A stretch of 64,000 bases of DNA, taken from Deltaproteobacteria bacterium. Its GTDB lineage: Bacteria; Myxococcota_A; UBA9160; SZUA-336. The position numbers and the translations under genes were made by a program. This document shows, piece after piece, positions 3,928 to 63,217 of the stretch. Positions within the stretch are counted from its first letter, which is position 1. Each line of letters begins with the position of its first letter. The stretch spans positions 2,670 through 66,669 of the forward strand of contig JAJDAJ010000054.1 in NCBI GenBank assembly GCA_029261925.1, written 5' to 3'. A model generated the notes under the pieces. It was not told the origin of the DNA. It did not search any database and was given only the letters and a program-made list of their open reading frames with translations.

Positions 3928-6064
<2,137 letters not shown>

Positions 6065-11951: not shown

Positions 11952-12069
11952 CAGGCTGCTGAAAATCGACCGAGGTGGGCTCGCTGGCTGATCGCGTAGC
12001 CCGGATGCCGGACCGTCCCGCAGCTCGCCGACGAGCCCGCGCGTGCCGTGGCCGCATCCGCCCCCAGCG

Positions 12070-12873
12070 TCACGCGGGTCGCTCGCTGCCGGGACGGTGG
12101 CGCGCCTGCTCCGCCATGCGCCCGACCGCGGCCGCCTCGTCGGGGCGCAGGCGTCGCCACTCGCCGGGCCGCAGACCCCGGAGCTTCAGCGGCCCGAACT
12201 GCACGCGCACCAGGCGGCGAACCGGGTGGCCGGCGGACTCGAACATGCGCCGCAGCTGACGCCGCTGGCCCTCCACGAGCTGCACCTGGAGCTTGGTGCG
12301 CGACTCGTCCCGCGACACCAGCGAGATCTCGCACGGACGCGTGTGCTCCCCGGGGCCGATCTCCACCCCGGCGGCGAGGCTCGACATCACCCCGGCGTCG
12401 ACCACGCCGTCCACCGTGACCAGGTAGACCCGCGGGACCTCGAACGAGGGATGCAGCATGGCCTGCGCCAGCAGACCGTCGTTGGTCAGCAGCACCAGCC
12501 CCTCGCTCGCGGCGTCGAGGCGGCCGACCGGGAACAGTCGCTCCCGCGCTCGCACCAGCTCGACCACGGTGCGCCGCGCCTGCGGGTCGTCGGTGGTGGT
12601 GACCACGCCGCGGGGCTTGTGGACGATGTAGTAGCGCGGGGGCGTGCGTGCCGGCAGCCGGCGACCGTCCACCCGCACGCGATCGCGCGCCGGATCGATG
12701 CGCGTTCCGGGCCGCGTGACCACGCGCCCGTTGACGCTGACGCGACCCTCGGCGATCAGCTCCTCGGCCGCGCGCCGCGACGCCAGTCCCGCCGCGGCGA
12801 TGACCTTCTGGAGCCGCTCCCCGCGGGGCCGGTCAGCCCGCGGTCTGGAGCGCCGGTCCGGTCGGCGGCCCAT
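12070..12873 (-). CDS. rluB: rRNA pseudouridine synthase (RluB/RsuA family)
   Basis: S4 domain ERLQKVIAAAGLASRRAAEELI, HKPRGVV, VGRLD; follows scpAB. Confidence 0.92.
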   Translation of the reverse strand: MGRRPDRRSRPRADRPRGERLQKVIAAAGLASRRAAEELIAEGRVSVNGRVVTRPGTRIDPARDRVRVDGRRLPARTPPRYYIVHKPRGVVTTTDDPQARRTVVELVRARERLFPVGRLDAASEGLVLLTNDGLLAQAMLHPSFEVPRVYLVTVDGVVDAGVMSSLAAGVEIGPGEHTRPCEISLVSRDESRTKLQVQLVEGQRRQLRRMFESAGHPVRRLVRVQFGPLKLRGLRPGEWRRLRPDEAAAVGRMAEQARHRPGSERPA

Positions 12874-45875: not shown

Positions 45876-46972
45876 CGTCCCAGCTCCAGGCGCAGCGCCT
45901 CCAGGAAGCGCTCGTTCTCCTCCGGGACCCCGACCGTCACGCGCAGGTGCCGCTCCAGCCCGAAGCCGGCCATCGGCCGGGTGATGACGCCGCGTCGGAG
46001 CAGCCCGTCATAGATCTCCGCCGCCCCGGGACCGACCTCGATCAGCAGGAAGTTCGCGTCGCTGGGGGCGTAGCCCAGGCCCAGCGCACGCGCTCCGGCC
46101 TCGAGCTGCTCCAGACCCGCGTGCGTGAGCTTGCGCACGCGCTCCACGTGCGCAGCGTCGGCCAGCGCCGCGCGCGCCGCGACCTGCGCCAGGCTGTTCA
46201 CATTGAACGGGTGGCGCGCGCGCGCCAGGAACCCGATCAGCTCCGCGTCCCCCACGCCGTAGCCCACCCGCAGCCCGGCCAGCCCGTGGATCTTCGAGAA
46301 GGTGCGCAGCACCACGAGCGTGCGGCGGCGCTCGAGCGCGCCGATCGCGTCGGGAAAGTCGGTCCGGCGCACGTACTCGAAGTAGGCCTCGTCGGCCACG
46401 ACGATCACGCGCTCGGGGATGCCGTCGAGCAGCCGCTCGAAGTCAGCGGCACCGATCGAGATCCCCGTCGGATTGTTGGGATTGGCCAGGAAGAGCACGC
46501 GCGTGCGCTCGCCCACGGCCGCGATCAGGGCGTCCACGTCGGCGCGCAGCTCCGCGTCGAGGGGCACCTGCACGGCGCGCGCGTTCGAGGCCGCCGCGAG
46601 GATCGGGTACATGGCGAAGCTCGGCCAGGCGAACAGGCACTCGTCGCCCGACGCGAGGAAGCAGCGTCCCAGCAGGTCGAGGACCTCGTCGGAGCCCGCA
46701 CCGCAGAGCAGCTGCCCGGGCTCCACCCCGAGCGCCGCGGCGAGGTCCTGCTTGAGGTACGGCGCGTCGTCCTCGGGGTAGCGGTGCAGGCCCCCGAGCT
46801 CCGCGCGCAGGGCCTCGATCACGCGCTCCGACGGCCCCAGCGGGGCCTCGTTGCTCGCCAGCTTGATCGAGCCCCGGATGCCCAGCTCCCGCTCCAGCTG
46901 CTCGATCGGCTTGCCCGGCTGGTAGGGCCGCAGCTCGCGGACGTGCGCGTTGACGAGGTCGGCGAGCTTCAC
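45872..46972 (-). CDS. hisC: Histidinol-phosphate / aromatic aminotransferase
   Basis: YQPGKP, KLASNE, NPNNPTG, DEAY, RTFSKIHGLAGLRVGY. Confidence 0.95.
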   Translation of the reverse strand: MKLADLVNAHVRELRPYQPGKPIEQLERELGIRGSIKLASNEAPLGPSERVIEALRAELGGLHRYPEDDAPYLKQDLAAALGVEPGQLLCGAGSDEVLDLLGRCFLASGDECLFAWPSFAMYPILAAASNARAVQVPLDAELRADVDALIAAVGERTRVLFLANPNNPTGISIGAADFERLLDGIPERVIVVADEAYFEYVRRTDFPDAIGALERRRTLVVLRTFSKIHGLAGLRVGYGVGDAELIGFLARARHPFNVNSLAQVAARAALADAAHVERVRKLTHAGLEQLEAGARALGLGYAPSDANFLLIEVGPGAAEIYDGLLRRGVITRPMAGFGLERHLRVTVGVPEENERFLEALRLELGR

Positions 46973-48057
46973 GACGACGCCTGCGGGTAGCTGCCGAGGA
47001 CCTTCACGAACTCGCAGCGCGGCCGCAGCTCGTCGATCGCGCGCGCCACCACCGGATCCTGGGCGTGGCCCTCGAAGTCGCAGAAGAAGACGTACTCCCA
47101 GGCGCGCACCCGCGTCGGCCGCGACTCGATCCGCGTCAGGTTCACGCCGTTGTGCGCGAACGGCTCGAGCGCGCGGTACAGGGCACCGCTCTGGTCGCGC
47201 TTGATCGAGAACAGGATCGAGGTGATGTCGCGATCGCTGGGCGGCGGAGCGCTGCGGCTGATCACCAGGAAGCGGGTCGTGTTGTCGGGGTTGTCCTCGA
47301 TGCCCGAGCGCACGATCTCGAGGCCGTAGATCTCGGCCGCGGCCGGGCTCGCGATCGCCGCGGCTCCGGCCTGGCCGACGACCCGCTCCGCGGCCGCCGC
47401 CGTCGACGCGGTGGTGTGCTGCTGCGCCGACGGCAGGTTCAGCTCGAGCCAGCCGCGGCACTGCGCGAGCCCCTGCGGGTGCGAGTAGACGTCGCGGATC
47501 GCCTCCAGGCCCGGGTCGCTGGCCAGCAGATCGTGATGGATCGCCACGTGGATCTCGGCGCAGATGACCAGCGGGGAGTCGACCAGGAGGTCGAGGGTGT
47601 GGCTGACCACGCCCTCGTTGCTGTTCTCGACGGGCACCACGCCGAACTCGGCGCTGCCCGCCTCGACCCGCTCGAAGATCTCGTCGGTGGTGCCGGTCGG
47701 CCCCAGCTCGGCCATCTGCCCGAACTGCTGGATCGCGGCCTGGTGCGTGTACGTGGCCCGCGGTCCCAGGTAGGCCACGCGCACCCCGCGCTGCAGCGCG
47801 ATCGACGCCGAGATGATCTCGCGGAAGACCTTCCGGATCGCCGGCGTCGGGAACGGCCCGGGGTTGCGACGCTCGAGCCGCTCGAAGATCTCGAGCTCGC
47901 GTCCGGGCACGAACGGCGTGTCGGCCGCGATCTGCCGCTTGAGCTGGCCGATCTCCGCGTTGCACCTCGCCCGCTCGTTGAGCAGCTCCAGGAGCCGGTC
48001 ATCGAGGGCGTCGATCTTCTCGCGCCAGGCCTTGATCTCGTCGCGCGGGTCGCTCAC
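46969..48057 (-). CDS. pheA: Chorismate mutase / prephenate dehydratase
   Basis: REKIDALD CM domain, VPVENSNEG, SHPQGLAQC, NTTRF, LTRIESRP. Confidence 0.96.
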   Translation of the reverse strand: MSDPRDEIKAWREKIDALDDRLLELLNERARCNAEIGQLKRQIAADTPFVPGRELEIFERLERRNPGPFPTPAIRKVFREIISASIALQRGVRVAYLGPRATYTHQAAIQQFGQMAELGPTGTTDEIFERVEAGSAEFGVVPVENSNEGVVSHTLDLLVDSPLVICAEIHVAIHHDLLASDPGLEAIRDVYSHPQGLAQCRGWLELNLPSAQQHTTASTAAAAERVVGQAGAAAIASPAAAEIYGLEIVRSGIEDNPDNTTRFLVISRSAPPPSDRDITSILFSIKRDQSGALYRALEPFAHNGVNLTRIESRPTRVRAWEYVFFCDFEGHAQDPVVARAIDELRPRCEFVKVLGSYPQASS

Positions 48058-48188
48058 GGCGCGCAAGCATACCCCAGCCTTTCCGGCACGCCAATAGATT
48101 CCCCTTCTAGGTCGCGCACTTGGGGCGTACCCCGGGAACCGCCGGGGCGCGGCCCCGGCGCCGGGCCGCGCGTGTACACTCGCGCGCC

Positions 48189-48827
48189 ATGGGATCGGTC
48201 CTCATCGGCCTCACCGGGGGCATCGGCACGGGCAAGTCGCGGGTCGCCGACCTGCTCACGGAGCTGGGCGCCGCGGTCGAGTGCTCCGATCTGATCGTGC
48301 GCGAGCTGCAGGCTCCCGGAGCGCCGGCGCTCGAGGCCATCCGGGCGGAGTTCGGGACGGAGTACATCACCGCGGGTGGCGAGCTCGACCGGCCGAAGCT
48401 CGGCGCCCTGGTCTTCGGCGATGCCGAGGCGCGCGGCCGGCTCAACGCCCTGATGCACCCGCTGGTCACCGACGAGCTGCGCCGGCGCGCCGAGCGCCAG
48501 CAGGACGCCGGCGTGCCCGTGGTCGTCGTCGACATCCCCCTGCTGCTCGAGGGACGGCGCTCGGGGACCGGCGCGGGCGCGGTGCTGCCCTTCGACGAGA
48601 TCGTGGTGGTCTACGCGAGCGAGACCCAGCAGATCGAGCGCGTGATGGCGCGCGACGGCCTCGACGCCGACGCCGCCCGCGCGCGTGTTGCGGCGCAGAT
48701 GTCGATCGAGGACAAGCGCGCGTTCCCGGGCGTGATCGTGGTCGACAACACCGGCGACTGGTCGGTCACCGAGAAGCAGGTGCGCGAGCTGCACGCGCGC
48801 TGGGTCGCGGAGGCCGGCGCGCGCTGA
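48189..48827 (+). CDS. coaE: Dephospho-CoA kinase
   Basis: IGLTGGIGTGKS, LDRPKLG, DIPLLLE. Confidence 0.93.
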   Translation: MGSVLIGLTGGIGTGKSRVADLLTELGAAVECSDLIVRELQAPGAPALEAIRAEFGTEYITAGGELDRPKLGALVFGDAEARGRLNALMHPLVTDELRRRAERQQDAGVPVVVVDIPLLLEGRRSGTGAGAVLPFDEIVVVYASETQQIERVMARDGLDADAARARVAAQMSIEDKRAFPGVIVVDNTGDWSVTEKQVRELHARWVAEAGAR

Positions 48828-48834
48828 GCGACGC

Positions 48835-49667
48835 TCAGCCGGCCCGGGCGTCGCGCACGGCGGCGGCGAGCTCGCGCACGAACGACCCGGCGGCGGCGAT
48901 CGCCGTCGACGGGCTGTCCGCCCGACCGATGCGTTCGACCAGCGCGCTGCCCACGATCACACCGTCGGCAATCCGCGCGACCCGCGCCGCATGTGCGGGG
49001 GTCGAGATGCCGAAGCCCACGCACACCGGCGTGGAGGTCACGCGCTGGAGGCGGCCCACCAGCTCCGAGAGATCGTCGGCGAGCTCGGTGCGCGCGCCGG
49101 TCACGCCCGTCACGCTGACGCAGTAGACGAAGCCGCGCGCGCCGTGCGCGATCCGCACCACGCGCTCCGGGGTGCTGGTCGGCGCGCACAGCGGGATCCG
49201 GTGGACCCCGGCCGCGGCGCAGGCCTGCGAGAGCAGCGGCCTCTCCTCGAACGGCGTATCGGCCAGGATCAGGCCGTCCACGCCCACCCGGGCGCAGTCG
49301 CGCGCCAGCCGCTCCTCCCCGTGGCTCAGCACGTTGTTCAGGTAGCCCATGAGCAGCAGCGGGACCTGCGAGACCTGGCGCACCGCCTGCACCGTGGCGA
49401 TCACCTGGTCCAGCCGCGTGCGATGCTGGAGCGAGCGCAGCGAGGAGAGCTGGATGGTCGGTCCCTCCCCGATCGGATCACTGTGCGGCACCCCGAGCTC
49501 CACGATGTCGGCACCGGCGCGCTCCAGCTCGAAGACCAGCTCGGCCGTGGTCTCCAGGTCGGGGTCCCCGGCGGTCACGAAGACCACGAGCGCGGCGCGC
49601 CCCTCGTGGCGCAGGCGCTCGAAGCAGGCGTCGATCCGGTTCGAGCCGGCGCTCGCCGGCGCGGCGC

Positions 49668-49671
<4 letters not shown>
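48835..49671 (-). CDS. trpA: Tryptophan synthase alpha chain
   Basis: [42 protein letters not shown]. Confidence 0.96.
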
Positions 49672-51460
<1,789 letters not shown>

Positions 51461-51464
<4 letters not shown>

Positions 51465-52240
51465 CTCGCTCCCCTCAGCTCGCGCAGCGCCTCGCCGGGC
51501 TCGGCCGCGCGCATCAGCGCCTCGCCGACCAGGAAGGCGCCCACCCCCAGCGCATCCAGGTCCCGGAGCACGGCGGCCGAGTCCAGCCCGCTCTCGCTGA
51601 CCAGGGTGACGCCGCCGGCCAGCGGCGCGAGCCGGCGCGTCACCGCGACGTCGGTCGCGAAGCTGCGGAGATCGCGATTGTTGATCCCCACCAGGTCCGC
51701 GCCGCTCGCGAGCGCGCGCTCCATCTCGGCCTCGTCGTGCACCTCGACCAGCACGTCGAGCTCCAGGCCGCGGGCCGCCGCGAGCAGGTCGCGCAGGCGC
51801 GCGTCGTCGAGCGCGGCCACGATCAGCAGCACGGCGTCGGCGCCGGCCGCGCGTGCCTCGAGCAGCTGGAGCGGATCGATGGTGAAGTCCTTGCGCAGCA
51901 CGGGCAGGCTCACGGCGTCGCGCGCGGCGCGCAGATCCTCGAGCGCGCCGCGGAAGAAGTCGCGGTCGGTGAGCACCGAGAGCGCGGCGGCGCCGGCCGC
52001 GGCGTAGGCGCGCGCGATCCCCGCGGGCTTCGCACCCGGCCGGATCTCGCCCTTCGACGGCGATGCGCGCTTGAACTCGGCGATCACGCGCGGCCGCGGT
52101 CCGTCGCGCAGCGCGCGCGCGAAGCCGCGCACCGGGCTGGCCGCCGCGAGGGCCTCGCGCAGCCGCGCCTCGCCCGGGTCGCGGCGCAGCCGGGCAACCT
52201 CCTGCGCCTTGCGCTCCAGGACCTCGTCGAGGATCGTCAC
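51461..52240 (-). CDS. trpC: Indole-3-glycerol phosphate synthase
   Basis: [34 protein letters not shown]. Confidence 0.96.
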
Positions 52241-53253
52241 GCCGCGGGCTCCTGCGTGAACGCCGCGAATCGCTCGAGCAGGCTCGTGGCGGCCCCCGAG
52301 TCGATCGCGTCCGCGGCGACGGCCGCCCCCTCCTCCGGGGTCTCGACCCGACCGGCCACGCAGAGGCAGGCCGCCGCGTTGAGCAGCACCACGTCGCGCC
52401 GCGGACCGCGCTCCCCGGAGAGCACGGCGCGCGCGATCCCGGCGTTCTGTGCGGCGTCGCCGCCGGTCAGATCGCCCTTGCGCCCGACCGGGACCACGCT
52501 GCCGGCCGCGAGCTCGAAGCGGCGCTCGCGGCCCTCCTCCCAGGCGTGCACCAGGGTGGGCGCCTCGATCGAGAGCTCGTCGAGTCCGTCGGTACCGTGC
52601 ACCACCCAGGCGCGCTCGACGCCGAGCTCGACCAGGGCCCGCAGCGTGGGCTCCACGAGCCGCGCGTCGGCCACGCCGATCAGCTGACGGCGCACCCGCA
52701 TCGGATTGGTCAGCGGGCCCAGGCGGTTGAAGATCGTGCGGATCCCGAGTCGCGTGCGGATCGGGGCCACGCGCGCCATGGCAGGGTGGCAGGCGCGCGC
52801 GTACAGGAAGCCCATCCCCACCTCGCGCACCGCGGCCGCCATGCGTGCGGGGGGCGCGTCGAGGTTCACGCCGAGCGCCTCGAGCACCTCGGCGCTGCCG
52901 CACTTGCTGCTCGCCGCGCGATTGCCGTGCTTGGCCACCGGCACGCCGGCGCCCGCGCAGACCAGCGCCGAGACGGTCGAGATGTTGAAGCTGTCCGAGC
53001 CGTCGCCCCCGGTCCCGCAGGTGTCGATCGCGCCCGCCGGCGCGGCCGGGAGCTCCACGGCGAGCTCGCGCATGGCCTCCGCTGCCCCCGCGACCTCGTC
53101 CACGGTCTCGCCGCGCGTGCGCAGCGCCGCGAGCAGCGCGGCGATCTCCACGTCGTCGGCATCGCCGCTCATCAGGGCACGCACCAGCTCGCGCGCCTCG
53201 GAGCGCGTCAGCGTCTCGCCCGCGACCACCCGCTCGAGCGCCGCCCGGATCAT
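52237..53253 (-). CDS. trpD: Anthranilate phosphoribosyltransferase
   Basis: [27 protein letters not shown]. Confidence 0.96.
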
Positions 53254-53824
53254 GCCGCCCCCGCCAGGCGCAGGAAGCCGCCGAGCAGCTGCTTGCCCTG
53301 CCCGGTCAGGATCGACTCCGGGTGGAACTGGACGCCCACGACGGCGTGCGTGCGATGGCGCACGCCCATGATCTCGCCGTCGTCGGTCCACGCGGTGACC
53401 TCGAGGGTCCCCGGCAGGCTCGAGCGCTCCAGCGCCAGCGAGTGATAGCGCGTGGCCTCGAACGGCTGCGGCAGTCCCTCGAAGATGCCCCGAGCATCGT
53501 GATGGATCAGCGAGGTCTTGCCGTGCATGAGGCTGCGGGCGGCGATCACGCGCCCCCCGAACGCCGCGCCGATCGACTGGTGCCCCAGGCAGACGCCCAG
53601 GATCGGCAGCTCCCCGGCGTAGCGCCGGATCACGTCCACGCTGATGCCGGCCTCGCGGGGCGTGCACGGCCCGGGTGAGATCACGATGGCCTCCACGCCG
53701 CGCGTGCCGATCTCCTCGACGCCAATGGCGTCGTTGCGAACCACGTCGCAGCCGGCCCCCAGCTCCCCCAGGTACTGCACCAGGTTGAACGTGAACGAGT
53801 CGTAGTTGTCGATCACCAGCAGCT

Positions 53825-53828
<4 letters not shown>
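53250..53828 (-). CDS. trpG: Anthranilate synthase component II (glutamine amidotransferase)
   Basis: [33 protein letters not shown]. Confidence 0.95.
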
Positions 53829-55363
<1,535 letters not shown>

Positions 55364-55427
55364 GGGCCGTTCCTCATGGGGGACGCAGGCTTGCACAGCG
55401 CCCGCGGAGCGTCAACCTGAGCGGCGC

Positions 55428-56330
55428 TCAGGCCGCGATCGCGCCCGAGATCTCGCCGTCGCGGGTCATGCGCACGCTCGGCAGGCCGAGCGCGTCGAGC
55501 CACGCGGGGCCCTCCGGCGCGCCGCGCAGCATGGCGATGGTCGACGCGCTGCCCGCGATCAGGCAGCTCGGGGCCTGCACGCTGACGCAGGTCAGGCCGC
55601 CGTCCGCGGGCCAGCCGGTGCGCGGGTCCAGGATGTGCCCGTAGCGAATGCCGTCCACGAGCATGCAGCGCTCGTAGTCCCCGCTCGAGGCCAGCCCCCC
55701 GCTCGACAGGCGGATCGAGGCCATGGCCGCCCCCGCCTGCCGCGGGTGGCGCACGCCCACGCTCCAGCCCTGCCCGTCGGGTCGCGGCCCGATCACGGCG
55801 AGGTCTCCGCCGAGATCCACCATGCCGTGCTCGACCCCCGCCTCGCGGCAGCAGGCCGCGGCGCGATCCACGGCGTACTCCTTGCCGATGCCCCCGAGGT
55901 CGAGCTCCATGCCGGCGAGCGGCAGGACCAGCCGCGGGGGGGCCCAGGTCAGGCGAGACCAGCCCACCCGCTCCAGCACGGCCGCCACCTCCCCGGCCGC
56001 GGGCACGCAGCCGGAGTGGAAGTCCCAGACCCGGCGCAGCACGCCGGAGGTGATGTCGAAGAGCCCGTCGCTCTGCTCCCAGCAGGTCTGCGCGTAGTCG
56101 AGCAGGTGCGCGGTCTCGGGATCGAGGTCGACGCCCTTGGCGTCGCCGGCGCTGCGATTGATCGCCCCGAGCAGGCTGTCGTCGCGGTAGCGCGAGTACT
56201 TGCGCTCGATGCGAGCGATCTCGGCGCGCGCCGTCCGCGCCGCGCCATCGAGCCGGTCGCGGTCGGGGCCGTAGAGCCGCAGCTCGCAGGGGCTCCCCAT
56301 GGCCCGGAACGTGTAGCGGCCCTCGTTCAC
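55428..56330 (-). CDS. apbE: FAD:protein FMN transferase (no signal peptide)
   Basis: FRAMGS, SDGLFDIT, LDLGGIGKEYAVD, LGGD, ASSGDYER, HILDPRTGWP. Confidence 0.93.
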   Translation of the reverse strand: MNEGRYTFRAMGSPCELRLYGPDRDRLDGAARTARAEIARIERKYSRYRDDSLLGAINRSAGDAKGVDLDPETAHLLDYAQTCWEQSDGLFDITSGVLRRVWDFHSGCVPAAGEVAAVLERVGWSRLTWAPPRLVLPLAGMELDLGGIGKEYAVDRAAACCREAGVEHGMVDLGGDLAVIGPRPDGQGWSVGVRHPRQAGAAMASIRLSSGGLASSGDYERCMLVDGIRYGHILDPRTGWPADGGLTCVSVQAPSCLIAGSASTIAMLRGAPEGPAWLDALGLPSVRMTRDGEISGAIAA

Positions 56331-56343
56331 GCCGCCGCGTGCC

Positions 56344-57630
56344 TCACCACAGGAAGGTCAGCCCGATCGTGACGACGTCGTAGTCCACCAGACCCGGGGA
56401 CTCGCGCGCATCGTCGTCGAAGCTGAGATCCTCGCTCGAGAAGTAGTTGTCCCAGGCGGCCGTCAACATGAAGTCGTGCTTGCCGGTCCAGGGCGTGCGG
56501 AAGCGGTACTGCGCCTTGACGCCGAAGAGCATCGAGCCGTAGGCCGAGAGCCGGTAGTCGCTCGAGCGCTCCTTGCTCACGCTCTCGCCGAGATCGAAGT
56601 ACGGCCGGTAGAAGTCCGCCTCGCTCTGCGAGTAGTACCGGAACGACGGGATGATCGCGAGGCGCCGCCCGAGCTGCTGGTGCCAGGCCAGCGCAACGGT
56701 GTGCGAGGTCACGCCCCAGGTATCGAGGTGCAGGCGATACTCGCCCTGCAGCGTACCGTCCAGCTCGCGCACGTGGCCGCGCACGCTCGTGGTCCAGGCG
56801 AGCTGGTGGCGCGAGTCGGGCCGGTTCTCGGCGACGATCACGCCCCCGTCCTGGTGCCAGACCGCCTTGTAGGGATCGGAGAGGTAGCCGTCGGAGAACT
56901 TGTACGTGACGTTGGACTGGATCAGCGAGGCCCGGTTGAGCAGCTGCGAGAGACCCAGCATCAGCGTGTAGGTCTTCTTCTCCTCGCTGGTCGGCCGCGT
57001 CGAGAAGAGCTCGGCATCGGTCGGCTCGATCTCGTCGAGCGAGACGTCCAGCCCGAGCGAGAGGGTCGTGTTGCCCTCGTTGAAGCTGGTGTCCCCGTTG
57101 ATCCCGAGGTTGATCGCGCTGTAGTCGTTCTCGCTCGAGTAGCCGGCCGCGAAGCCCAGTCGTCCGGTGTCCGAGTATCGGTTGTACTGCACGAGGACGT
57201 CGTCGCGGGTGTCCTCGATGGTCGCACCCGTCATGAACTGCAGGGGCTCGGAGCCCGGCCCGGGGATGTCCGGGATGGTGTACCAGGGGCTCGCACCCGA
57301 CATGGTCTCGTGCACGAGCTCGATCGAGAGATCCGAGCTCGACGTGAGCGGCGCCCGCACCGTGAACTGGTGCATCTCGATCTCGTAGCGCTCGGTCTCG
57401 CCCACGAAGACCTTCGAGCTGTCGATCTCGTCCTCGGTGTAGCTGCTGAAGCTGTACTCCGCGGTGTAGCGATCGACCGGAGTGTCGGCCCGGGCCGCCT
57501 GCGGCAGCGATGAGAGCGCGAACGCACTGCCCCAGAGCGCGTGCAGCGTCTGGCTCAGCGGGCCGTTACGCCGCCGGTCGAGTCTCTGGTCACGCCGCCG
57601 CTGGTGGCGATTCCTTGCTGGTCTGGCCAT
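56344..57630 (-). CDS. DUF3570-like outer-membrane beta-barrel protein
   Basis: ETMSGAS, SSENDYS, GYLSDPYK, RPDSR, RYYSQSEADFY, SDYRLS; C-terminal aromatic TFLW; located between DUF4266 and apbE. Confidence 0.8.
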   Translation of the reverse strand: MARPARNRHQRRRDQRLDRRRNGPLSQTLHALWGSAFALSSLPQAARADTPVDRYTAEYSFSSYTEDEIDSSKVFVGETERYEIEMHQFTVRAPLTSSSDLSIELVHETMSGASPWYTIPDIPGPGSEPLQFMTGATIEDTRDDVLVQYNRYSDTGRLGFAAGYSSENDYSAINLGINGDTSFNEGNTTLSLGLDVSLDEIEPTDAELFSTRPTSEEKKTYTLMLGLSQLLNRASLIQSNVTYKFSDGYLSDPYKAVWHQDGGVIVAENRPDSRHQLAWTTSVRGHVRELDGTLQGEYRLHLDTWGVTSHTVALAWHQQLGRRLAIIPSFRYYSQSEADFYRPYFDLGESVSKERSSDYRLSAYGSMLFGVKAQYRFRTPWTGKHDFMLTAAWDNYFSSEDLSFDDDARESPGLVDYDVVTIGLTFLW

Positions 57631-57675
57631 CGTCTACCCCCCGGAGAATCAAGGCCTGGTCGAGCTGGATCGGGA

Positions 57676-58005
57676 TCAGTTGCAGCCGCAGCCGCCGCCG
57701 CCGGCGCCTCCACCGCCCAGCGACGACTCCTTGCTGAAGAAGATGTGGTTGCGGCGCGCCGTCTCGATCGGATCCGGCGTCCACTGCATCTCGGTCTTGG
57801 AGAGCAGATCACGCTCCCACGGCTGTACGCGCACGAGCTCCTCGCGCTCGAGGAGCCTGGCGATCAGGCTCCGCGACTGATCCACCTTCTCGCTCGTGAA
57901 CTCTTTCGTGCGCTCGTAGTACTTCGGCGGGCCGGTCAGGGAGCAGCCGCTGGTAACCAGTATGGCGAGCGTCGCGAGGGCCAGGGATGTGCTTCTTCGG
58001 ATCAT
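57676..58005 (-). CDS. DUF4266-like lipoprotein with C-terminal GGGGCGCN
   Basis: Lipobox TSGC; VQPWER, H..FSKE.S.GG..GGGGCGCN. Confidence 0.85.
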   Translation of the reverse strand: MIRRSTSLALATLAILVTSGCSLTGPPKYYERTKEFTSEKVDQSRSLIARLLEREELVRVQPWERDLLSKTEMQWTPDPIETARRNHIFFSKESSLGGGGAGGGGCGCN

Positions 58006-58103
58006 CGCTGTGTCTCCACGAGGAACGGATCGACCGCTCGGGCCACCGCCCCGTGATGCATCTCACCTGCGCACGGGAGCGCGTGGATCGAGTTCTCGGG
58101 CTC

Positions 58104-58256
58104 CTATCGGTCCCGCGCTGCCGGGGATGTAGACCCGCAAGGCGCCTGCAGCTTCCCGGTCCGGGCCCGCGCGCCCGAACGCGGATCGCCGATCGCGAGG
58201 CTTCTGGCGACAGTGGTGATCACTGTCACAAGGTCGGCCCCCGGCAGCGCCGAAGA
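58104..58256. promoter_or_regulatory. Divergent promoter region with inverted repeats
   Basis: 12-bp IR GCGCTGCCGGGG (58115-58126) / CCCCGGCAGCGC (58239-58250); palindrome GACAGTG-N5-CACTGTC (58209-58227); sigma28-like elements on both strands. Confidence 0.5.
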
Positions 58257-58312
58257 GATCTGCGAGTCAGCAGCAGAGGGGAGCGCTGCTCGGGAAGACT
58301 GACCAGAGGAGC

Positions 58313-59497
58313 GTGATGAACACCCCAGGCCAGATGCGGCGCCACACCTGCTGGTGCCTCGTTGCCACCGCCGTCCTCGCGTTCTCGATCCCGGCGGCGG
58401 CCGGGCCCCGGGAGCAGGCGAGGCGCATGCACGACCGCCTCGCGGGCGTACCCCCCACTCCGGCCGTCCTCGACGCCATGGAGGCGTTGATCAACGCCGG
58501 CGACGAGATCGGCGCCGCCAACCAGGCGATGTCCCATCCCCTGTTCTACAGCTCCGTGCTGAAGAACTGGGTCGCGCCGTGGACCAACGTCGAGCAGACG
58601 GTCTTCGTGCCGCTGAACGACTACACCGCCACGGTCATCGGGATCATCCGGGACGACCGGCCCTTCACCGAGGTGCTCACCGCGGACCTGGTCTACGTGG
58701 GCTCCGGGAGCGTCACGAGCACGCCCTACTCCCACACCGACAACGCGCACTACCAGCAGCTCGAGGACCAGCGGGTCGATCTCTCGAACCCGGCCAACCT
58801 GATCCCGGTCACCCAGTCCGGCCTTCCCGGCTCGATGCTGAGCCCCGCGGACACCGCGGGCGTGATCACGACCCGCGCCGCCGGCGAGGCCTACTTCTCG
58901 GCCGGCACCAATCGCCGCATGTGGCGCTACACGGCCATGAACTACCTGTGCCGCGACATGGAGCAGCTCAACGACATCACGCGGCCCTCGGACTGGATCC
59001 GCCAGGACGTCACCCGCAGCCCGGGTGGCGACAGCCGCATCTTCCACAACACCTGCGTGGGCTGCCACAGCGGCATGGACCCGCTCTCCGGCGCCTTCGC
59101 GTACTTCGAGTGGGATGCCGACCAGATGCGCGTCATCTACACGCCCGGCCAGGTCCAGGCCAAGCACCTGATCAACTCGACCTCGTTCCCGTTCGGCTAC
59201 GTCACCACGGACGACAGCTGGGAGAATTACTGGCGCAGTGGACCGAACGCCCTGCTCGGCTGGCGCGCCGCGGCCTCGAGCGGCAACGGGCCCAAGGGCC
59301 TCGGCGAGGAGGTGGCCATGAGCCGCGCATTCTCCGAGTGCCAGGTCCTCAAGGCGTTCGAGCAGATCTGCCAGCGGCCTCCGCTCGACCCGACGGAGCG
59401 CGCCGAGATCCAGCGCATCGCCGACGTGTTCGAGGCCCAGAACTACAGCATGCAGCGCGTCTTCGCAGAGGTCGCGGTGTACTGCACGGCGGACTGA
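58313..59497 (+). CDS. Exported protein with single CxxCH heme-binding motif
   Basis: Signal peptide ending AAA; CVGCH; GAGGAG RBS. Confidence 0.8.
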   Translation: MMNTPGQMRRHTCWCLVATAVLAFSIPAAAGPREQARRMHDRLAGVPPTPAVLDAMEALINAGDEIGAANQAMSHPLFYSSVLKNWVAPWTNVEQTVFVPLNDYTATVIGIIRDDRPFTEVLTADLVYVGSGSVTSTPYSHTDNAHYQQLEDQRVDLSNPANLIPVTQSGLPGSMLSPADTAGVITTRAAGEAYFSAGTNRRMWRYTAMNYLCRDMEQLNDITRPSDWIRQDVTRSPGGDSRIFHNTCVGCHSGMDPLSGAFAYFEWDADQMRVIYTPGQVQAKHLINSTSFPFGYVTTDDSWENYWRSGPNALLGWRAAASSGNGPKGLGEEVAMSRAFSECQVLKAFEQICQRPPLDPTERAEIQRIADVFEAQNYSMQRVFAEVAVYCTAD

Positions 59498-59538
59498 CGG
59501 CGCGCGCCGTCGGACCCCTGACTTCATCGGAGGCATCC

Positions 59539-61710
59539 ATGCGAGCCCCCAGCTTCATCCATCCTTCCCTGCACGCGACCGGCGCCCTGCTGCTCGCCGT
59601 CGCCTTCCTCGCCGCCTGCGGCGGCGGCGGTGGCGGCGGTGGTGGCGGCGACGACGCCAGCGCCCAGGCGACCAGCACCGGCACGTCCGGGGGCAGCAGC
59701 GGCAGCGCCTTCATTCCCACCGGCAACGGCATCGACGGAGAGTCGGCGTTCGCCCAGACCGTCTACCCGCTCACCAGCCAGTACTGCACCGGCTGCCATG
59801 CCGGCGCCGGTCCGGGATTCCCGCACCTGGCGCATCCCGATCAGGGGACCGCGTACCGCGCGGTGATCGACAACCAGAAGGCCAACTTCGCCAACCCGGA
59901 TGCCTCGCGCCTCGTGCTGCGGCTCTCCGTGGACCAGCACTACTGCTGGAGCTCCTGCGCCGCGGACGGCCAGACGATGGCAACGGCGATCACCGACTGG
60001 GCCAACCTGATCGGCTACACCGGCGCGGCCGGCGGCAACGGCAACACGGGCAACGGCGGCGGCCAGGTCGCCGGCGTCGCGGCGAGCTACTCGAACGTGT
60101 TCGCGAACGCCACGGCGGCCGAGAGCCAGCGCGACCAGTCCAACCTGATCGCCCTGTACACCTTCAAGGAGGAGTCGGGCGACTCCACGCTCGACGTGTC
60201 GGGCGTGCCGCCTTCGATGCATCTCGACCTGTCGGGCGGCTACACCTGGCTGCCCGGAGGTGGCCTCGAGATGAGCGGCGGCCGCGCCGTGGCCACGAGC
60301 ACGGACAGCCAGAAGCTGTTCAACCGCATCGCCAGCGGGCGCGGCAGCCAGGAGTACTCCATCGAGGCCTGGGTGATCCCCGCGAACACGGATCAGGAGG
60401 GCCCGGCGCGGATCGTCACCTACTCGGATGACACCCAGAACCGCAACTTCACGCTCGGCCAGGTCCAGTACACCTACGTGTTCCGGAACCGCTCCAGCAA
60501 CCCCGCGGTTTCCCCGAACGGGACCCCCGAGCTCCAGACGTCGGACGACGACGAGGACCTGCAGGCCACCCTGCAGCACGTGGTCGCGACCTACGACCAG
60601 GTCAACGGCCGCCGCATCTACGTGAACGGCATCTACACGGACGACGCCGACGCGGTCGCGCCCGACATGATGCTCAACTGGAACCCGGGCTACCAGTTCG
60701 CCCTGGGCAACGAGGTCAGCGGCAACCGGCGCTGGTTCGGCCAGCTCAAGCTGGTGGCGGTCTATGACCGGGCGCTGCCCGAGTCCCAGATCGCGCAGAA
60801 CTACCTGGCGGGTGCCAGCGACAAGTTCATCCTGCGCTTCGGCCTGGACGACTACCTGACCGCCGGCGACTTCATCGAGTTCGAGGTCAGCGACTTCGAC
60901 GCCTACAGCTACCTGTTCTGCTTCCCGACCGTGCACTCGGCGATGGGCGGCTCCTTCGGCATCGAGGGCCTGCGGGTGGCGGTCAACGGCACCGCACCGG
61001 TCGCGAGCCAGAGCTTCAAGAACGTGGATTCCATGGTGACCCAGCCGGTCGAGCTGCTCTCCGGGCTCTGCTCGGTGGTCCCCAAGGATCTGGGGGTGGC
61101 CCTGGACCAGTTCTCGATCTGGTTCGACCTGATCGCGAGCACGGACCTGCGCGCGCCCGAGGATCCGCCCGAGCCGATCGTGGACAACTCGGTGCTGGAC
61201 CCGCTGCCCCTCACGGGCATCCGCGACTTCGACCAGATCAACAACACCCTGGCGGAGATCACGGGCGTCGATCCGAACACGTCCTCGGTGCTGCTCACCT
61301 TCGACGCGGTGCGGGAGCAGCTGCCGATGAACACGGACGTGCGCTCCTTCGTGACCGCGCAGCAGGTGGGCATCGCGAAGCTCGCACTCGAGTACTGCAA
61401 CGAGCTGGTCGAGTCGCCCACCCTGAGGACGGCCTTCTTCGGGCCCTTCGTGTTCGACCGTGACGCCGTCACGGCGTTCACGGCCCAGGCCGATCGCGAC
61501 CTGATCATCAACGCGCTGATCCCGCACGGGATCGGACAGGGTCTCGCCAATCAGCCGACCGCGGCCGAGATCGCCTCGGTGCTCGAGATGCTGATCGACG
61601 ACCTGATCGCTGGCTGCACACCGGCGACCTGTCCGGCAGAGCGCACGCGGACCGTGGTCAAGGGGGCCTGTGCGGCCGTCCTCGGCAGCGCGGCCGTTCA
61701 CCTCCAGTGA
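59539..61710 (+). CDS. Lipoprotein with CxxCH cytochrome c domain and LamG/concanavalin-like domain
   Basis: Lipobox LAAC, Gly linker, CTGCH; LamG motifs YSIEAWV, HVVATYD, IYVNG, VAVYDRAL. Confidence 0.85.
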   Translation: MRAPSFIHPSLHATGALLLAVAFLAACGGGGGGGGGGDDASAQATSTGTSGGSSGSAFIPTGNGIDGESAFAQTVYPLTSQYCTGCHAGAGPGFPHLAHPDQGTAYRAVIDNQKANFANPDASRLVLRLSVDQHYCWSSCAADGQTMATAITDWANLIGYTGAAGGNGNTGNGGGQVAGVAASYSNVFANATAAESQRDQSNLIALYTFKEESGDSTLDVSGVPPSMHLDLSGGYTWLPGGGLEMSGGRAVATSTDSQKLFNRIASGRGSQEYSIEAWVIPANTDQEGPARIVTYSDDTQNRNFTLGQVQYTYVFRNRSSNPAVSPNGTPELQTSDDDEDLQATLQHVVATYDQVNGRRIYVNGIYTDDADAVAPDMMLNWNPGYQFALGNEVSGNRRWFGQLKLVAVYDRALPESQIAQNYLAGASDKFILRFGLDDYLTAGDFIEFEVSDFDAYSYLFCFPTVHSAMGGSFGIEGLRVAVNGTAPVASQSFKNVDSMVTQPVELLSGLCSVVPKDLGVALDQFSIWFDLIASTDLRAPEDPPEPIVDNSVLDPLPLTGIRDFDQINNTLAEITGVDPNTSSVLLTFDAVREQLPMNTDVRSFVTAQQVGIAKLALEYCNELVESPTLRTAFFGPFVFDRDAVTAFTAQADRDLIINALIPHGIGQGLANQPTAAEIASVLEMLIDDLIAGCTPATCPAERTRTVVKGACAAVLGSAAVHLQ

Positions 61711-61729
61711 GAGCCTGTGGAGCAATGAG

Positions 61730-63217
61730 ATGAGACGCAAGGCGAACCTGAACCCCGACGCACCCCTCCAGCTGGAGGGCCACGGCCGACCCGTGAGCCG
61801 CCGCGACTTCCTGTCGCGGGGACTCATCTCGGGCGCGGCCATGGTCACGGCCCCGAGCCTGCTCAACCTGCTGGTCTCGCCCCGCGCCCTGGCGCAGTTC
61901 GCGGACTGCGGGGTGGGCGGCGGCGGGGGCAAGATCCCCTTCCTGTGCTACGACCTCGCCGGTGGCCTGAACATCGCCGGGTCGAACGCGCTGGTCGGGG
62001 GCCCGGGCGGGCAGCTCGACTTCCTGTCCGTGGGTGGCTACGAGAAGCTGGGATTGCCGGCTGCCATGACCCCGGATCGCGCCGGCCAGGTCAGCGCCGA
62101 GCTCGGGCTGCTGTTCCACTCGGACAGCGCCCTGCTCGCCGGGATCATGTCCAAGACGTCGCAGACCACCCGCGACAGCACCAACGGCACCGTGCTGTGC
62201 ACGCGCTCGGAGAACGACACCCAGAACAACCCGCACAATCCCATGTACGGGATCAACAAGGCGGGCGCGGACGGCAACCTGGTGGCGCTGATCGGAACCT
62301 CGAACTCCGACTCGGGCGGGCGGTCGATCCAGCCGATGTCGATGTTCGATCCGGCTGCGCGACCCACGAAGGTGTCGTCGGGGCGGGACGCGACCGGGCT
62401 GGTCGACACCGGCAAGCTGGTCGAGCTGCTCGACCAGAACGACGCGGCCGCGGTGATGAACTCGATCGAGCAGATCAGCGACATGAAGCTGAACCGCATC
62501 ACCGAGGACGCCTCGCTGGAGGACCTGATCCACTGCGGCTACGTGGAGGCGACGGACCTGGTCTCGACGTTCGGTGACCCGACGCTGCTGGACCCGCTCA
62601 ACGACCCCGACATCAACGGCGGGATCTTCGATGCCGCGGAGCTGGATCAGGGCCGCTTCCAGAAGACGGCGGCCGTCATGAAGCTGGTCGTGGAGGGCTT
62701 CGCCGGCGCGGGCACGATCGAGAACGGTGGCTACGACTACCACGACAGCACGCGCGCCACCGGCGAGATCCGGGACTTCCTGGCCGGCCAGATGATCGGC
62801 GCGGCGCTGGAGTTCGCGGCCCTGCGCTCGCAGCAGCTCATGATCTACGTGTTCTCGGACGGGTCGGTGGCCAGCGACGGCACCATCGACACCTCGCCCG
62901 AGGGCCGGGACAAGGGCGTCTGGCGCGGCGACAACAGCTCGACCTCGGCCGGGATCATCTTCGTGCACGACCCGGCGGGACGGCCCGCGCTCGTGGGACC
63001 GGGCGCCCAGATCGGGTACTTCCGGCCCGACGCCTCGATCGAGACGGCCGCCACGCGGATCAGCAACAACGTGCCGCTGCTCGCCGAGGCCATCGTGCTC
63101 AACTACATGGCCCTGCACAACGACGTCGGTAACTTCTCGACCGTCCTGCCCGGCCACGGCCTGGGCAACACGCCCGCCGACCTCGACGCGCTGATCGCCT
63201 TCGCGCCCATCCGCTGA
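61730..63217 (+). CDS. Tat-exported protein (DUF1501/DUF1552-like)
   Basis: SRRDFL twin-arginine signal, DLAGG, GYDYHD, FSDG. Confidence 0.75.
   Translation: MRRKANLNPDAPLQLEGHGRPVSRRDFLSRGLISGAAMVTAPSLLNLLVSPRALAQFADCGVGGGGGKIPFLCYDLAGGLNIAGSNALVGGPGGQLDFLSVGGYEKLGLPAAMTPDRAGQVSAELGLLFHSDSALLAGIMSKTSQTTRDSTNGTVLCTRSENDTQNNPHNPMYGINKAGADGNLVALIGTSNSDSGGRSIQPMSMFDPAARPTKVSSGRDATGLVDTGKLVELLDQNDAAAVMNSIEQISDMKLNRITEDASLEDLIHCGYVEATDLVSTFGDPTLLDPLNDPDINGGIFDAAELDQGRFQKTAAVMKLVVEGFAGAGTIENGGYDYHDSTRATGEIRDFLAGQMIGAALEFAALRSQQLMIYVFSDGSVASDGTIDTSPEGRDKGVWRGDNSSTSAGIIFVHDPAGRPALVGPGAQIGYFRPDASIETAATRISNNVPLLAEAIVLNYMALHNDVGNFSTVLPGHGLGNTPADLDALIAFAPIR

Follow-up and report, generated by a model that had tools for sequence, protein, structure and literature searches.

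The six genes described here make up two divergently transcribed halves, a flavin-thiol module and a trio encoding two putative haem proteins and a Tat-exported protein, which adjoin each other in two phyla of bacteria and therefore very likely work together. The present data comprise gene content, motif conservation, a modelled fold, and the linkage across the two phyla. All coordinates refer to the window, the whole stretch of 64,000 nt that was analysed, which comes from a Deltaproteobacteria bacterium (GCA_029261925.1, contig JAJDAJ010000054.1) and contains the following features:

55428..56330, minus strand: ApbE-family FAD:protein FMN transferase, 300 aa (PF02424, E 7.7e-74)
56344..57630, minus strand: DUF3570 protein, 428 aa (PF12094, E 1.9e-64)
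57676..58005, minus strand: DUF4266 lipoprotein, 109 aa (PF14086, E 1e-20)
58006..58312, no strand: divergent intergenic region between the DUF4266 and cyt1 genes, 307 bp (delimited from the sequence)
58313..59497, plus strand: cyt1, exported protein with one CxxCH, 393-394 aa (CVGCH at residues 248-252)
59539..61710, plus strand: lipoprotein with CxxCH and a LamG domain, 723 aa (PF13385, Laminin_G_3, E 5.2e-18)
61730..63217 (ORF opens at 61670), plus strand: Tat-exported protein with the SRRDFL motif, 495 aa, without a Pfam family

The likely start of the Tat gene is 61730, since the called protein (P0001) consists of 495 residues. The first-pass annotation, made from the letters alone, had listed the same six genes (DUF4266, DUF3570, and apbE on the minus strand; CVGCH, CTGCH/LamG, and SRRDFL proteins on the plus strand), and both the open reading frames and the family assignments were borne out. 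Close homologues of each of the six proteins number in the thousands, and other genomes repeat the gene order, which places the locus far above chance. An unrelated trp operon adjoins the flavin module in the window. The divergent intergenic region contains the palindrome ACAGTGgtgatCACTGT (positions 58210-58226; 1 copy in the window vs 0.05 expected), which was not found in the related loci; a search of 58006..58312 for sigma-70-like sites found none.

Linkage of the two halves across genomes

The Tat protein served to fetch 80 loci, 56 of which retain the full 10 kb upstream and could be evaluated. All 56 encode both cyt1 and the LamG lipoprotein, and DUF3570 is encoded upstream in 49 of them, a thioredoxin with the WCxPC motif in 43, DUF4266 in 41, ApbE in 28, and DsbD in 20. 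In unbiased genome samples, the Tat protein is found in 26 of the 301 Myxococcota and 37 of the 300 Gammaproteobacteria. DUF3570 is present in 23 of these 26 myxococcotal genomes vs 85 of the 275 others, and in 35 of the 37 gammaproteobacterial ones vs 32 of the 264 others, although kin genomes are not independent, so that fewer separate events lie behind these counts than the figures suggest. The DUF3570 gene lies within 10 kb of the trio, in divergent orientation, in 20 of the 26 trio genomes of Myxococcota and within about 11 kb in 23 of the 37 gammaproteobacterial ones; in the gammaproteobacterial loci checked singly, it was adjacent in 5 of 5. The first-pass annotation had called for a co-occurrence analysis and would have counted a failure of the halves to co-occur as a refutation; the analysis found the two halves next to each other across both Myxococcota and Gammaproteobacteria. 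The order within the cluster varies: the junction is occupied by DsbD in Myxococcota and by a haem beta-propeller and small barrels in gammaproteobacteria, and in Alteromonas the ApbE gene has moved beside the Tat gene with the two halves still together.

Two sets of observations count against a joint system. DUF3570 is missing nearby in 7 of the 56 evaluable loci, and a complete trio-carrying genome, G128, has no match to PF12094 anywhere; the trio can thus work without the flavin module. Conversely, DUF3570 modules are common in genomes that lack the trio (the 85 and 32 genomes mentioned above). In one locus without the module, L071, a multihaem protein similar to MtrC and MtrF is encoded before cyt1 instead, which suggests that electron-supply modules are interchangeable. 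At least one complete genome and 7 loci with the trio alone, the location of most DUF3570 genes elsewhere, and the trp operon next to the flavin module could all be accommodated if the two halves were mere neighbours kept by descent, with no shared function. Such an explanation is very improbable, given that the adjacency is seen in two phyla despite differing internal order and differing flanking genes and that DUF3570 is so much more frequent in trio genomes than in the others of both samples.

The tight pairing gives a candidate partner to each of two widespread gene sets that were described years ago but have no assigned function: the DUF3570/DUF4266/ApbE flavin module and the planctomycete-type modules of cytochromes with a Tat enzyme. 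The flavin module was present in 108 of the 301 Myxococcota and 67 of the 301 Gammaproteobacteria genomes sampled, and the text of a 2021 survey (PMC8238504) counts hundreds of its clusters. The pairing is also found in cultured strains of Alteromonas and Aliiglaciecola, which makes both functions amenable to testing.

Conserved motifs and predicted properties of the proteins

The minus-strand half is the published “DsbD-type” flavinylation module. As presented in the text of the survey, such clusters consist of ApbE, DUF3570, a thioredoxin-like protein, and DUF4266, with or without DsbD (Meheust, Huang, Rivera-Lugo, Banfield & Light 2021, eLife 10:e66878; PMC8238504); ApbE flavinylates DUF3570, and two [S/T]GA[S/T] motifs in the Chlorobium luteolum protein were shown experimentally to be flavinylated. 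The first-pass annotation had named ApbE, DUF3570, and DUF4266 (usually with a thioredoxin) as a set noted in flavinylation surveys. DUF3570 is presumed to be an outer-membrane barrel, and its motifs mark it as a probable ApbE substrate: the window copy carries two flavinylation motifs, SGAS at residue 111 and TGAT at residue 134, and among 25 Myxococcota-type relatives, 21 retain the pair and all 25 retain one or more. The C-terminal residue is Phe, Trp, or Tyr in 29 of 29 complete relatives, and the window copy ends in Trp. The DUF4266 protein has the lipobox LVTSGC, its Gly-rich C-terminal tail finishes with GGGCGCN, and an alignment of 22 sequences shows residues G103-N109 to be invariant in all of them.

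The first-pass statement that no thioredoxin is present holds for the locus, where neither thioredoxin nor DsbD was found and the gap between DUF4266 and cyt1 is only 307 bp, but not for the genome. A DsbD gene and a TlpA-like thioredoxin gene, whose products are 53-55% identical to the in-cluster copies of relatives, are paired on contig C37, together with a secretin-like gene that is likewise a neighbour seen in relatives.

In the trio, the cyt1 residues C248, C251, H252, and M255 are invariant in an alignment of 27 sequences, with CxxCH in 27 of 27. The LamG lipoprotein carries the lipobox LAAC, CTGCH at residue 83, a LamG/concanavalin-like domain (residues 269-419), and a C-terminal domain without a known family that has conserved cysteines (Cys at 620, 693, 698, and 711) and for which an Atlas search returned no named neighbour. 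Of 68 relatives, 63 retain its CxxCH motif, with two copies in the gammaproteobacterial forms, and its total of 11 cysteines is close to that typically kept by the relatives (~11). CxxCH motifs that are unconserved and haem-free had been named beforehand as grounds for abandoning the proposal; the motifs turned out to be conserved in both families, and we infer that both proteins bind haem. A cytochrome c maturation system (CcmF/CcmC-type genes on contig C48) is encoded in the same genome. The cyt1 family comprises 1590 representatives at E ≤ 0.001. Scores of the window protein against the PSD2, PSCyt3, and PSCyt2 profiles (E 0.015-0.24) do not reach the Pfam cut-offs; among the 27 family members, 23 match PSD2 (best E 2.1e-6) and 13 match PSCyt3, so that cyt1 might be a distant, faint relative of the planctomycete PSD2 (DUF1585) and PSCyt3 (DUF1588) domains. 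A search of the PDB with cyt1, by sequence and by fold, gave no match.

The Tat protein has an RR pair in 69 of 69 sequences (R44 and R45 being invariant) and scores 16.4 bits against the TIGR01409 Tat-signal profile, with a cut-off of 16.7. Its structural model, of middling confidence (pLDDT 70), has the fold of the alkaline-phosphatase/sulfatase superfamily, including the core alpha/beta fold: all 50 of the 50 VIA-align rows listed are enzymes of the alkaline-phosphatase superfamily (Z 9.4-11.8, with 212-253 residues aligned over residues 86-513), and the top Foldseek matches belong to the same superfamily but have E values of 3e-3 or higher. At least 97% of the 69 sequences share D95, D356, H358, and C80; C80 is invariant (69/69), and C289 is found in 67 of the 69. 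D95 and the pair D356/H358 are candidates for the metal-binding Asp after strand 1 and for the Asp-x-His pair of the superfamily. Of the earlier description of this protein as a cofactor- or metal-loaded enzyme, the model favours the enzyme-like metalloprotein part; the fold is not one known to hold a redox cofactor.

Candidate electron relay and alternative roles

The reading preferred here, with about an even chance of being correct, is that the six genes specify a single conserved system of the envelope, built in two halves, in which a thiol-to-flavin-to-haem relay serves the trio. How electrons would pass, in which direction, to what substrate, and where in the cell is inferred as follows. 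The TlpA-like thioredoxin and DsbD, here encoded on the other contig, would bring in reducing power from cytoplasmic thioredoxin, and the DUF4266 lipoprotein would offer a C-terminal Cys-Gly-Cys arm. FMN attached covalently by ApbE to the DUF3570 barrel would act as a converter between the two-electron dithiol and the one-electron c-type haems. The haems of cyt1 and the haem/lectin lipoprotein, which would accompany the Tat-exported metalloenzyme with its alkaline-phosphatase fold, could then serve either that enzyme or the substrate that its lectin partner binds, probably a glycan-like polymer of the envelope or of the surroundings. Such a relay would bring the power of cytoplasmic thioredoxin to haem proteins at the outer membrane, and its Tat enzyme would be the first in the alkaline-phosphatase superfamily to be tied to redox chemistry.

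The relay is supported by the linkage described above, by the Ccm system and the C37 genes of this genome, and by the conservation of redox motifs in DUF3570 (two [ST]GA[ST]), DUF4266 (GGGCGCN), and both haem proteins (CxxCH). The first-pass annotation had proposed a heme-flavin-thiol conduit across the outer membrane, linked to an enzyme acting on an extracellular substrate; the pairing of the halves, the conserved CxxCH motifs, and the enzyme-like Tat protein bear out part of this proposal, of which the passage of electrons across the membrane and the extracellular substrate are conjectural. Several observations count against the relay. The ApbE protein in the window lacks a signal peptide (there is an in-frame stop 9 codons upstream of its GTG start), yet the protein it would modify is exported; in Myxococcota-type relatives, too, the ApbE domain begins right at the start, and Alteromonas-type ones have a signal peptide. 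Many gammaproteobacterial DUF3570 proteins encoded beside the trio have a single motif, often SSAS, a putative flavin site. The structure model of cyt1 is poor near CxxCH, and the modelled fold of the Tat protein is of the hydrolase/transferase type, with Asp and His residues in what looks like the usual metal-site pattern and without a known redox cofactor site.

The route from DsbD to TlpA/CcmG-type thioredoxins is the classical reducing pathway for apocytochromes, which speaks for an alternative role in maintenance rather than conduction: DsbD, the TlpA-like thioredoxin, and DUF4266 would reduce or protect the cysteines of the trio in the oxidising periplasm, and no electrons would pass to a substrate. 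Candidates are C80 and C289 of the Tat protein, the 11 cysteines in the LamG lipoprotein, and those of the CxxCH motifs as long as no haem is attached. The steady cysteine content of LamG protein relatives, the near-complete conservation of both Tat cysteines, the position of the WCxPC thioredoxin as the most constant neighbour after DUF3570, and an MsrA gene located downstream of the Tat gene in locus L004 all fit such a role. It leaves nothing to do, however, for flavinylated DUF3570 and ApbE, the best-conserved partners (49 of the 56 loci); the genome has its separate Ccm system elsewhere, and the survey text describes the module with non-cytochrome partners as well (PMC8238504). Maintenance is considered a rather unlikely role.

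It is improbable, but conceivable by analogy with the Sox system, that the haem proteins oxidatively join a small sulfur or thiol-reactive substrate to the Cys arm of DUF4266, with the sulfatase-fold Tat enzyme hydrolysing the adduct and thioredoxin/DsbD rescuing the mis-oxidised carrier. The parts would correspond to Sox parts one for one: the c-type cytochrome SoxXA makes the conjugate and SoxB then frees sulfate hydrolytically, steps for which the haem proteins and the Tat enzyme, with its modelled sulfatase/phosphatase fold, would be the counterparts. The invariant GGGCGCN end of DUF4266 resembles the C-terminal GGCGG tail on whose Cys SoxY bears its substrate, as the text of PMC6067878 describes it. 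The correspondence is one of analogy alone, with DUF4266/DUF3570 pairs found in many clusters without the trio (also in the survey text, PMC8238504), the flavin barrel and the lectin domain left without a clear role, and most carriers, judged by the names of their records, seeming to be heterotrophs. SoxB, moreover, is not known to be an alkaline-phosphatase-fold enzyme. The more specific proposal that DUF4266 is a SoxY-like swinging-arm substrate carrier and not a simple electron carrier, its Cys-Gly-Cys loaded by the haem proteins, the adduct hydrolysed by the Tat enzyme, and the carrier reset by flavinylated DUF3570 and thioredoxin/DsbD, is a long shot; if true, it would mean that a Sox-type pathway had arisen a second time, without relation to the first, and would give PSCyt/DUF1501-like modules their first function.

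Comparison with known systems

The first-pass description of the system as functionally undescribed stands only in part: the flavinylation of DUF3570 and the cluster around it have been published (PMC8238504), and the trio, an unnamed set of highly conserved families, resembles published but unexplained PSCyt/DUF1501 modules of Planctomycetes and Verrucomicrobia described in PMC3542564. The minus-strand half is like the DsbD-type cluster in its ApbE, DUF3570 with two [S/T]GA[S/T] motifs, and DUF4266 with a C-terminal CxC, here all on one strand, to which thioredoxin and DsbD are added in related loci. It differs in having thioredoxin and DsbD on another contig (the survey text itself counts 316 clusters without DsbD), in its ApbE without a signal peptide, and in facing a haem/lectin/phosphatase-fold trio that is unmentioned in the main text of the survey (PMC8238504).

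The likeness to the Sox system (SoxYZ, SoxXA, SoxB, SoxS/W, and SoxV) would extend to the Gly-rich C-terminal arm with its Cys, the c-type cytochromes, the hydrolase, the thioredoxin of the periplasm, and the reductant importer of the DsbD/CcdA type. Pfam and NCBIfam scans of the six proteins matched no Sox families; the hydrolase fold differs, and the flavinylated barrel and lectin domain set the present system apart, so that it is an analogue and not a member. Porin-cytochrome conduits, of which MtrCAB is one, combine genes for an outer-membrane barrel, a lipoprotein, and haem proteins. Genes for a barrel, a lipoprotein, and haem proteins are similarly grouped here, and in locus L071 the flavin module is replaced by an MtrC/MtrF-like protein; unlike in MtrCAB, there are no multihaem wires, with one CxxCH per protein, and the redox group of the barrel is predicted to be a covalent flavin.

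Modules of DUF1501 with PSCyt1-PSCyt2-PSD1 proteins, with or without Laminin_G_3, are described for Planctomycetes, Verrucomicrobia, and Lentisphaerae in the text of two earlier studies (Kamneva et al. 2012, PMC3542564; He et al. 2017, PMC5615132). Like the trio (RR in 69 of 69 sequences, cyt1 and LamG in 56 of 56 loci), they pair a Tat-signal enzyme-like protein with CxxCH proteins, possibly with Laminin_G_3. An Atlas lead connects the Tat protein to DUF1501 clusters (score 0.92), and the two align end to end by motif order (the RR signal, the first strand with GG-D, and GGYDYHD opposite WDxH). The DUF1501 profile (PF07394) matched 0 of 30 members of the Tat family at E ≤ 1, and hhalign of the family against 15 DUF1501 proteins gave a probability of only 13-25% (P 8e-4, 392 columns). 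Unlike the modules described in these studies, the present one has its haem part split over two genes, is hosted by Myxococcota and Gammaproteobacteria, and is linked to a flavin/thiol module.

Gene content of the locus and its counterpart on a second contig

The region has a G+C content of 66-75% and contains six convincing genes in two divergent sets separated by a gap of 307 bp. The minus strand carries a DUF4266-DUF3570-ApbE module and the plus strand a trio that comprises an exported protein with one CxxCH motif (referred to as cyt1), a LamG lipoprotein, and a Tat protein. The ORFs and families of all six, as described in the first-pass annotation, are borne out by Pfam E-values and sequence motifs.

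Genes at the locus (window numbering)
49668-55396, same strand as apbE: complete trp string (trpE, trpG, trpD, trpC, and a trpF-trpB fusion)
55428-56330, minus: ApbE (PF02424, E 7.7e-74)
56344-57630, minus: DUF3570 (PF12094, E 1.9e-64)
57676-58005, minus: DUF4266 (PF14086, E 1e-20)
58313-59497, plus: cyt1, exported, 394 aa, with CVGCH
59539-61710, plus: LamG lipoprotein, 723 aa, lipobox LAAC, CTGCH at residue 83 (Laminin_G_3, E 5.2e-18)
ORF opening at 61670, plus: Tat protein with SRRDFL, third of the plus-strand genes

The Tat gene probably starts at 61730, because its called homologue P0001 is 495 aa long, and is followed by a CoiA-like gene. The trp string, which begins 31 bp downstream of apbE, looks like the product of a local rearrangement, as its position is occupied by other genes in relatives. 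Searches of the divergent region and of the apbE-trpE gap turned up no sigma-70-like promoter and no terminator. The divergent region contains a perfect palindrome, ACAGTGgtgatCACTGT (58210-58226), which occurs once in the window versus 0.05 expected; it is not conserved in related loci and was therefore dropped as a candidate shared operator.

The earlier remark that no thioredoxin is present holds for the locus but not for the genome. A TlpA-like thioredoxin and DsbD, which share 53-55% identity with their counterparts inside the clusters of the related loci L004 and L002, are encoded outside the window on contig C37 (about 46697-50933), adjoined by a short-secretin homologue (PF00263 plus the GspD C-terminal part). 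Since these are homologues of genes found inside the cluster in relatives, the system in this genome is, judging by homology, split over two loci. Just past the window end (67032-70520 on contig C54), there are genes for three family-less proteins of about 206, 188, and 765 aa, one of them a lipoprotein; homologues of about 209, 185, and 713 aa accompany the cluster in 16-20 of the related Myxococcota-type loci.

Linkage of the two halves in Myxococcota and Gammaproteobacteria

From 562 confirmed loci in species-representative genomes, the 80 best were chosen with the Tat alignment; 24 of these, with less than 9.5 kb upstream, were set aside, and 56 were evaluated. Genes for cyt1 and the LamG protein are present in all 56 loci, DUF3570 in 49, a WCxPC thioredoxin in 43, DUF4266 in 41, ApbE in 28, a hydrazine-synthase-alpha-like haem beta-propeller in 25, and DsbD in 20. 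The seven loci without DUF3570 are L017, L021, L022, L039, L051, L068, and L071. In the Myxococcota sample, the Tat protein is encoded in 26 of 301 genomes, and DUF3570 in 23 of those 26 versus 85 of the 275 others; the DUF3570 gene is divergent and less than 10 kb away in 20 carriers, sits on a different contig in 3 with fragmented assemblies, and is absent in 3. One of the last 3 is the complete single-contig genome G128, which carries the trio and has no PF12094 match. The gammaproteobacterial counts, made by hand from two tables (67 DUF3570 genomes, including G367, which is flagged unpublished), are similar in form: the Tat protein in 37 of 300 genomes, and DUF3570 in 35 of these 37 versus 32 of 264 others. 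Among the carriers, DUF3570 lies within ∼11 kb in 23, is clearly non-adjacent or absent in 4, and is undecidable in 10; it was found at the locus edge in all five gammaproteobacterial loci inspected individually. Co-occurrence of the two halves in other genomes, on which the first-pass annotation had staked its reading, is thus seen in 49 of the 56 loci and in the samples from both phyla. No P-value is attached to this linkage because kin genomes are not independent.

The gene order differs between the two phyla. In Myxococcota, a forward short-secretin gene precedes the reverse-strand ApbE, DUF3570, DUF4266, thioredoxin, and DsbD genes, which are followed by the forward cyt1, LamG, and Tat genes. 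In Gammaproteobacteria, the reverse-strand series is DUF3570, DUF4266, thioredoxin, a small barrel, an SH3-barrel, and the haem propeller, again followed by forward cyt1, LamG, and Tat; in Alteromonas, ApbE is encoded immediately past the Tat gene. That the adjacency survives this rearrangement argues for a shared function of the two halves, and the reading that they are mere neighbours, for which the seven loci and G128 might be cited, appears highly improbable.

Several loci show further features. In gammaproteobacterial loci L025, L031, L034, L054-L058, L063, L069, and L072-L081, the junction is occupied by the HZS_alpha-like beta-propeller protein (∼900 aa, 1-2 CxxCH), which replaces DsbD, and by a pair of small OMP barrels, one of which contains an SH3 domain. 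A conserved string 3′ of the Tat gene in the same loci encodes a second thioredoxin (SSRCxxC), a 236-aa protein of no assigned role, two large TPR proteins, ExbB, two ExbD, and a TonB-like protein. In L004, an MsrA gene (PF01625, peptide methionine sulfoxide reductase; 11483-12232) lies directly 3′ of the Tat gene. In genome G148 (contig C27, 16412-18472), the match covers only the last 79 Tat residues, ∼750 bp from a DUF3570 gene, and possibly marks a cluster copy that has decayed or been rearranged.

Proteins of the trio

Homologues of cyt1 are numerous: of 8000 candidates scored, 7978 clusters match at E ≤ 0.001, most of them with 60-80% identity and without a name. A profile of cyt1 recovers 1590 representatives clustered at 50% identity. 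The CxxCH motifs, which the first-pass annotation had named as refuting its reading should they be unconserved and haem-free, are well preserved: C248, C251, H252, and M255 are invariant in cyt1, and the motif of the LamG protein is retained in 63 of 68 relatives, with two copies in gammaproteobacterial forms. No Pfam family matches cyt1 above threshold; of 27 family members, 23 are matched by PSD2 (DUF1585; best E 2.1e-6), 13 by PSCyt3, 11 by Cytochrome_CBB3, and 5 by PSCyt2. A PDB sequence search with cyt1 gave no matches at E ≤ 10, and Foldseek with its model, which is poor at residues 220-302, gave a best E of only 3.4. The best 150 hits of the profile search were close family members only, with no bridge to planctomycete proteins.

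The LamG lipoprotein has further Cys residues at 620, 693, 698, and 711, and an Atlas search with its C-terminal part returned no named neighbour. In L017 (4504-9954), L021, and L022, which have no DUF3570 gene within 10 kb, this protein is enlarged to 1700-1800 aa and contains cadherin-like, Big_9, and He_PIG repeats and a second CxxCH.

Homologues of the Tat protein (7921 clusters at E ≤ 0.001 among 8000 candidates scored) are likewise mostly 60-80% identical and unnamed. There was no Pfam or NCBIfam match, nor any PDB sequence match at E ≤ 10. The structure model has moderate confidence (pLDDT 70, pTM 0.73); Foldseek returned nothing at E ≤ 0.001, the top rows being a sulfatase, phosphoglycerate mutases, and alkaline phosphatases. 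A Foldseek-independent structure search gave Z scores of 9.4-11.8 over residues 86-513, and all 50 matches listed were sulfatases, NPP/ENPP, phosphoethanolamine transferases, LtaS, phosphoglycerate mutases, or alkaline phosphatases, which form a single superfamily. Residues D95, D356, H358, C80, and C289 are each retained by no fewer than 97% of 69 sequences. C177 was rejected as a sulfatase-like formylglycine site because it is present in only 29 of the 69, and the public name "general secretion pathway protein GspF" (record P0088 and Atlas clusters) receives no support from the fold.

A candidate electron relay and related modules

Taken singly, each half is of a known kind. The minus-strand half is the module already published in PMC8238504, which describes DsbD-associated clusters and 316 clusters without DsbD and calls their function uncertain; in Chlorobium luteolum, the cognate ApbE has been shown to flavinylate a DUF3570 protein at two [S/T]GA[S/T] motifs (Meheust et al. 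2021, PMC8238504). Of the first-pass view that the six-gene system is functionally undescribed, what stands is the pairing of the halves, of which we found no mention in the parts covered of the literature on DUF3570, DUF4266, DUF1501, and DUF1585/DUF1588. The terms Laminin, PSCyt, DUF1501, sulfatase, and twin-arginine are absent from the main text of PMC8238504, the supplementary tables of which may mention the pairing.

DUF3570 of the window contains SGAS at 111 and TGAT at 134. Among 25 Myxococcota-type relatives, 21 have both motifs and all have at least one; many gammaproteobacterial copies have a single motif, often SSAS. A signal peptide and a C-terminal F, W, or Y (29/29 complete relatives) fit an outer-membrane barrel. 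The DUF4266 lipoprotein ends in GGGCGCN, invariant in 22/22 sequences. ApbE lacks a signal peptide in the window, where an in-frame stop precedes the start by 9 codons, and in Myxococcota-type loci L005, L008, L009, L013, L014, L020, L044, L061, and L066; Alteromonas-type copies have one. That the signal-less ApbE instead flavinylates the Tat protein was rejected, as the proteins of the trio contain no [ST]GA[ST] motif. Complex prediction for DUF3570 (47-428) and DUF4266 (21-109) with cyt1 (31-394) as partner scored 0.02 versus a mark of 0.32 and is evidence neither for nor against.

These parts could form a thiol-flavin-haem relay serving the trio, to which we give about an even chance. DsbD would hand electrons of cytoplasmic thioredoxin to the TlpA-like thioredoxin, which would reduce the Cys-Gly-Cys arm on DUF4266; the flavins covalently held by DUF3570 would accept two electrons and release them singly to cyt1 and the LamG lipoprotein through their c-type haems, and these haems might serve the phosphatase-fold enzyme or a lectin-held substrate. 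What is observed directly is the gene set, the motif conservation, the fold of the Tat protein, and the linkage between the halves. The cytochrome c maturation system encoded in the genome fits such a relay. In L071 (from an Agarilytica MAG), a locus that has no DUF3570 module, an MtrC/MtrF-like multihaem protein with CarboxypepD_reg (4066-5994) stands in the place of the module, directly upstream of cyt1, which suggests that electron suppliers are interchangeable. Against the relay count the signal-less ApbE set opposite an exported DUF3570 substrate, the single-motif gammaproteobacterial copies, the absence of the module from 7 of 56 loci and from G128, and the fold of the Tat enzyme, which is hydrolytic, not redox. 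The first-pass interpretation is partly supported, by the linkage of the halves and the conserved CxxCH motifs; its electron passage across the outer membrane and its extracellular substrate gain no support. A maintenance role for the thiol module appears unlikely. A Sox-like carrier-arm pathway, which the GGGCGCN tail of DUF4266 and a matching cast of parts would suit, is an analogy that we regard as quite improbable.

The relay reading aside, the trio seems distantly related to the DUF1501/PSCyt/PSD1 modules, the function of which is likewise unexplained in the passages that treat them in PMC3542564 and PMC5615132. An Atlas search with the Tat protein led to DUF1501 clusters (score 0.92; a lead only). 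Alignment by hhalign with 15 DUF1501 proteins from related genomes had a probability of just 13-25% and ran end to end, through the RR signal and first strand, with GGYDYHD opposite WDxH. A search of the genome for HXXSHH/DUF1552 (PF07586) gave no match. By profile, the trio does not belong to these modules of Planctomycetes and Verrucomicrobia, which occur with or without Laminin_G_3.
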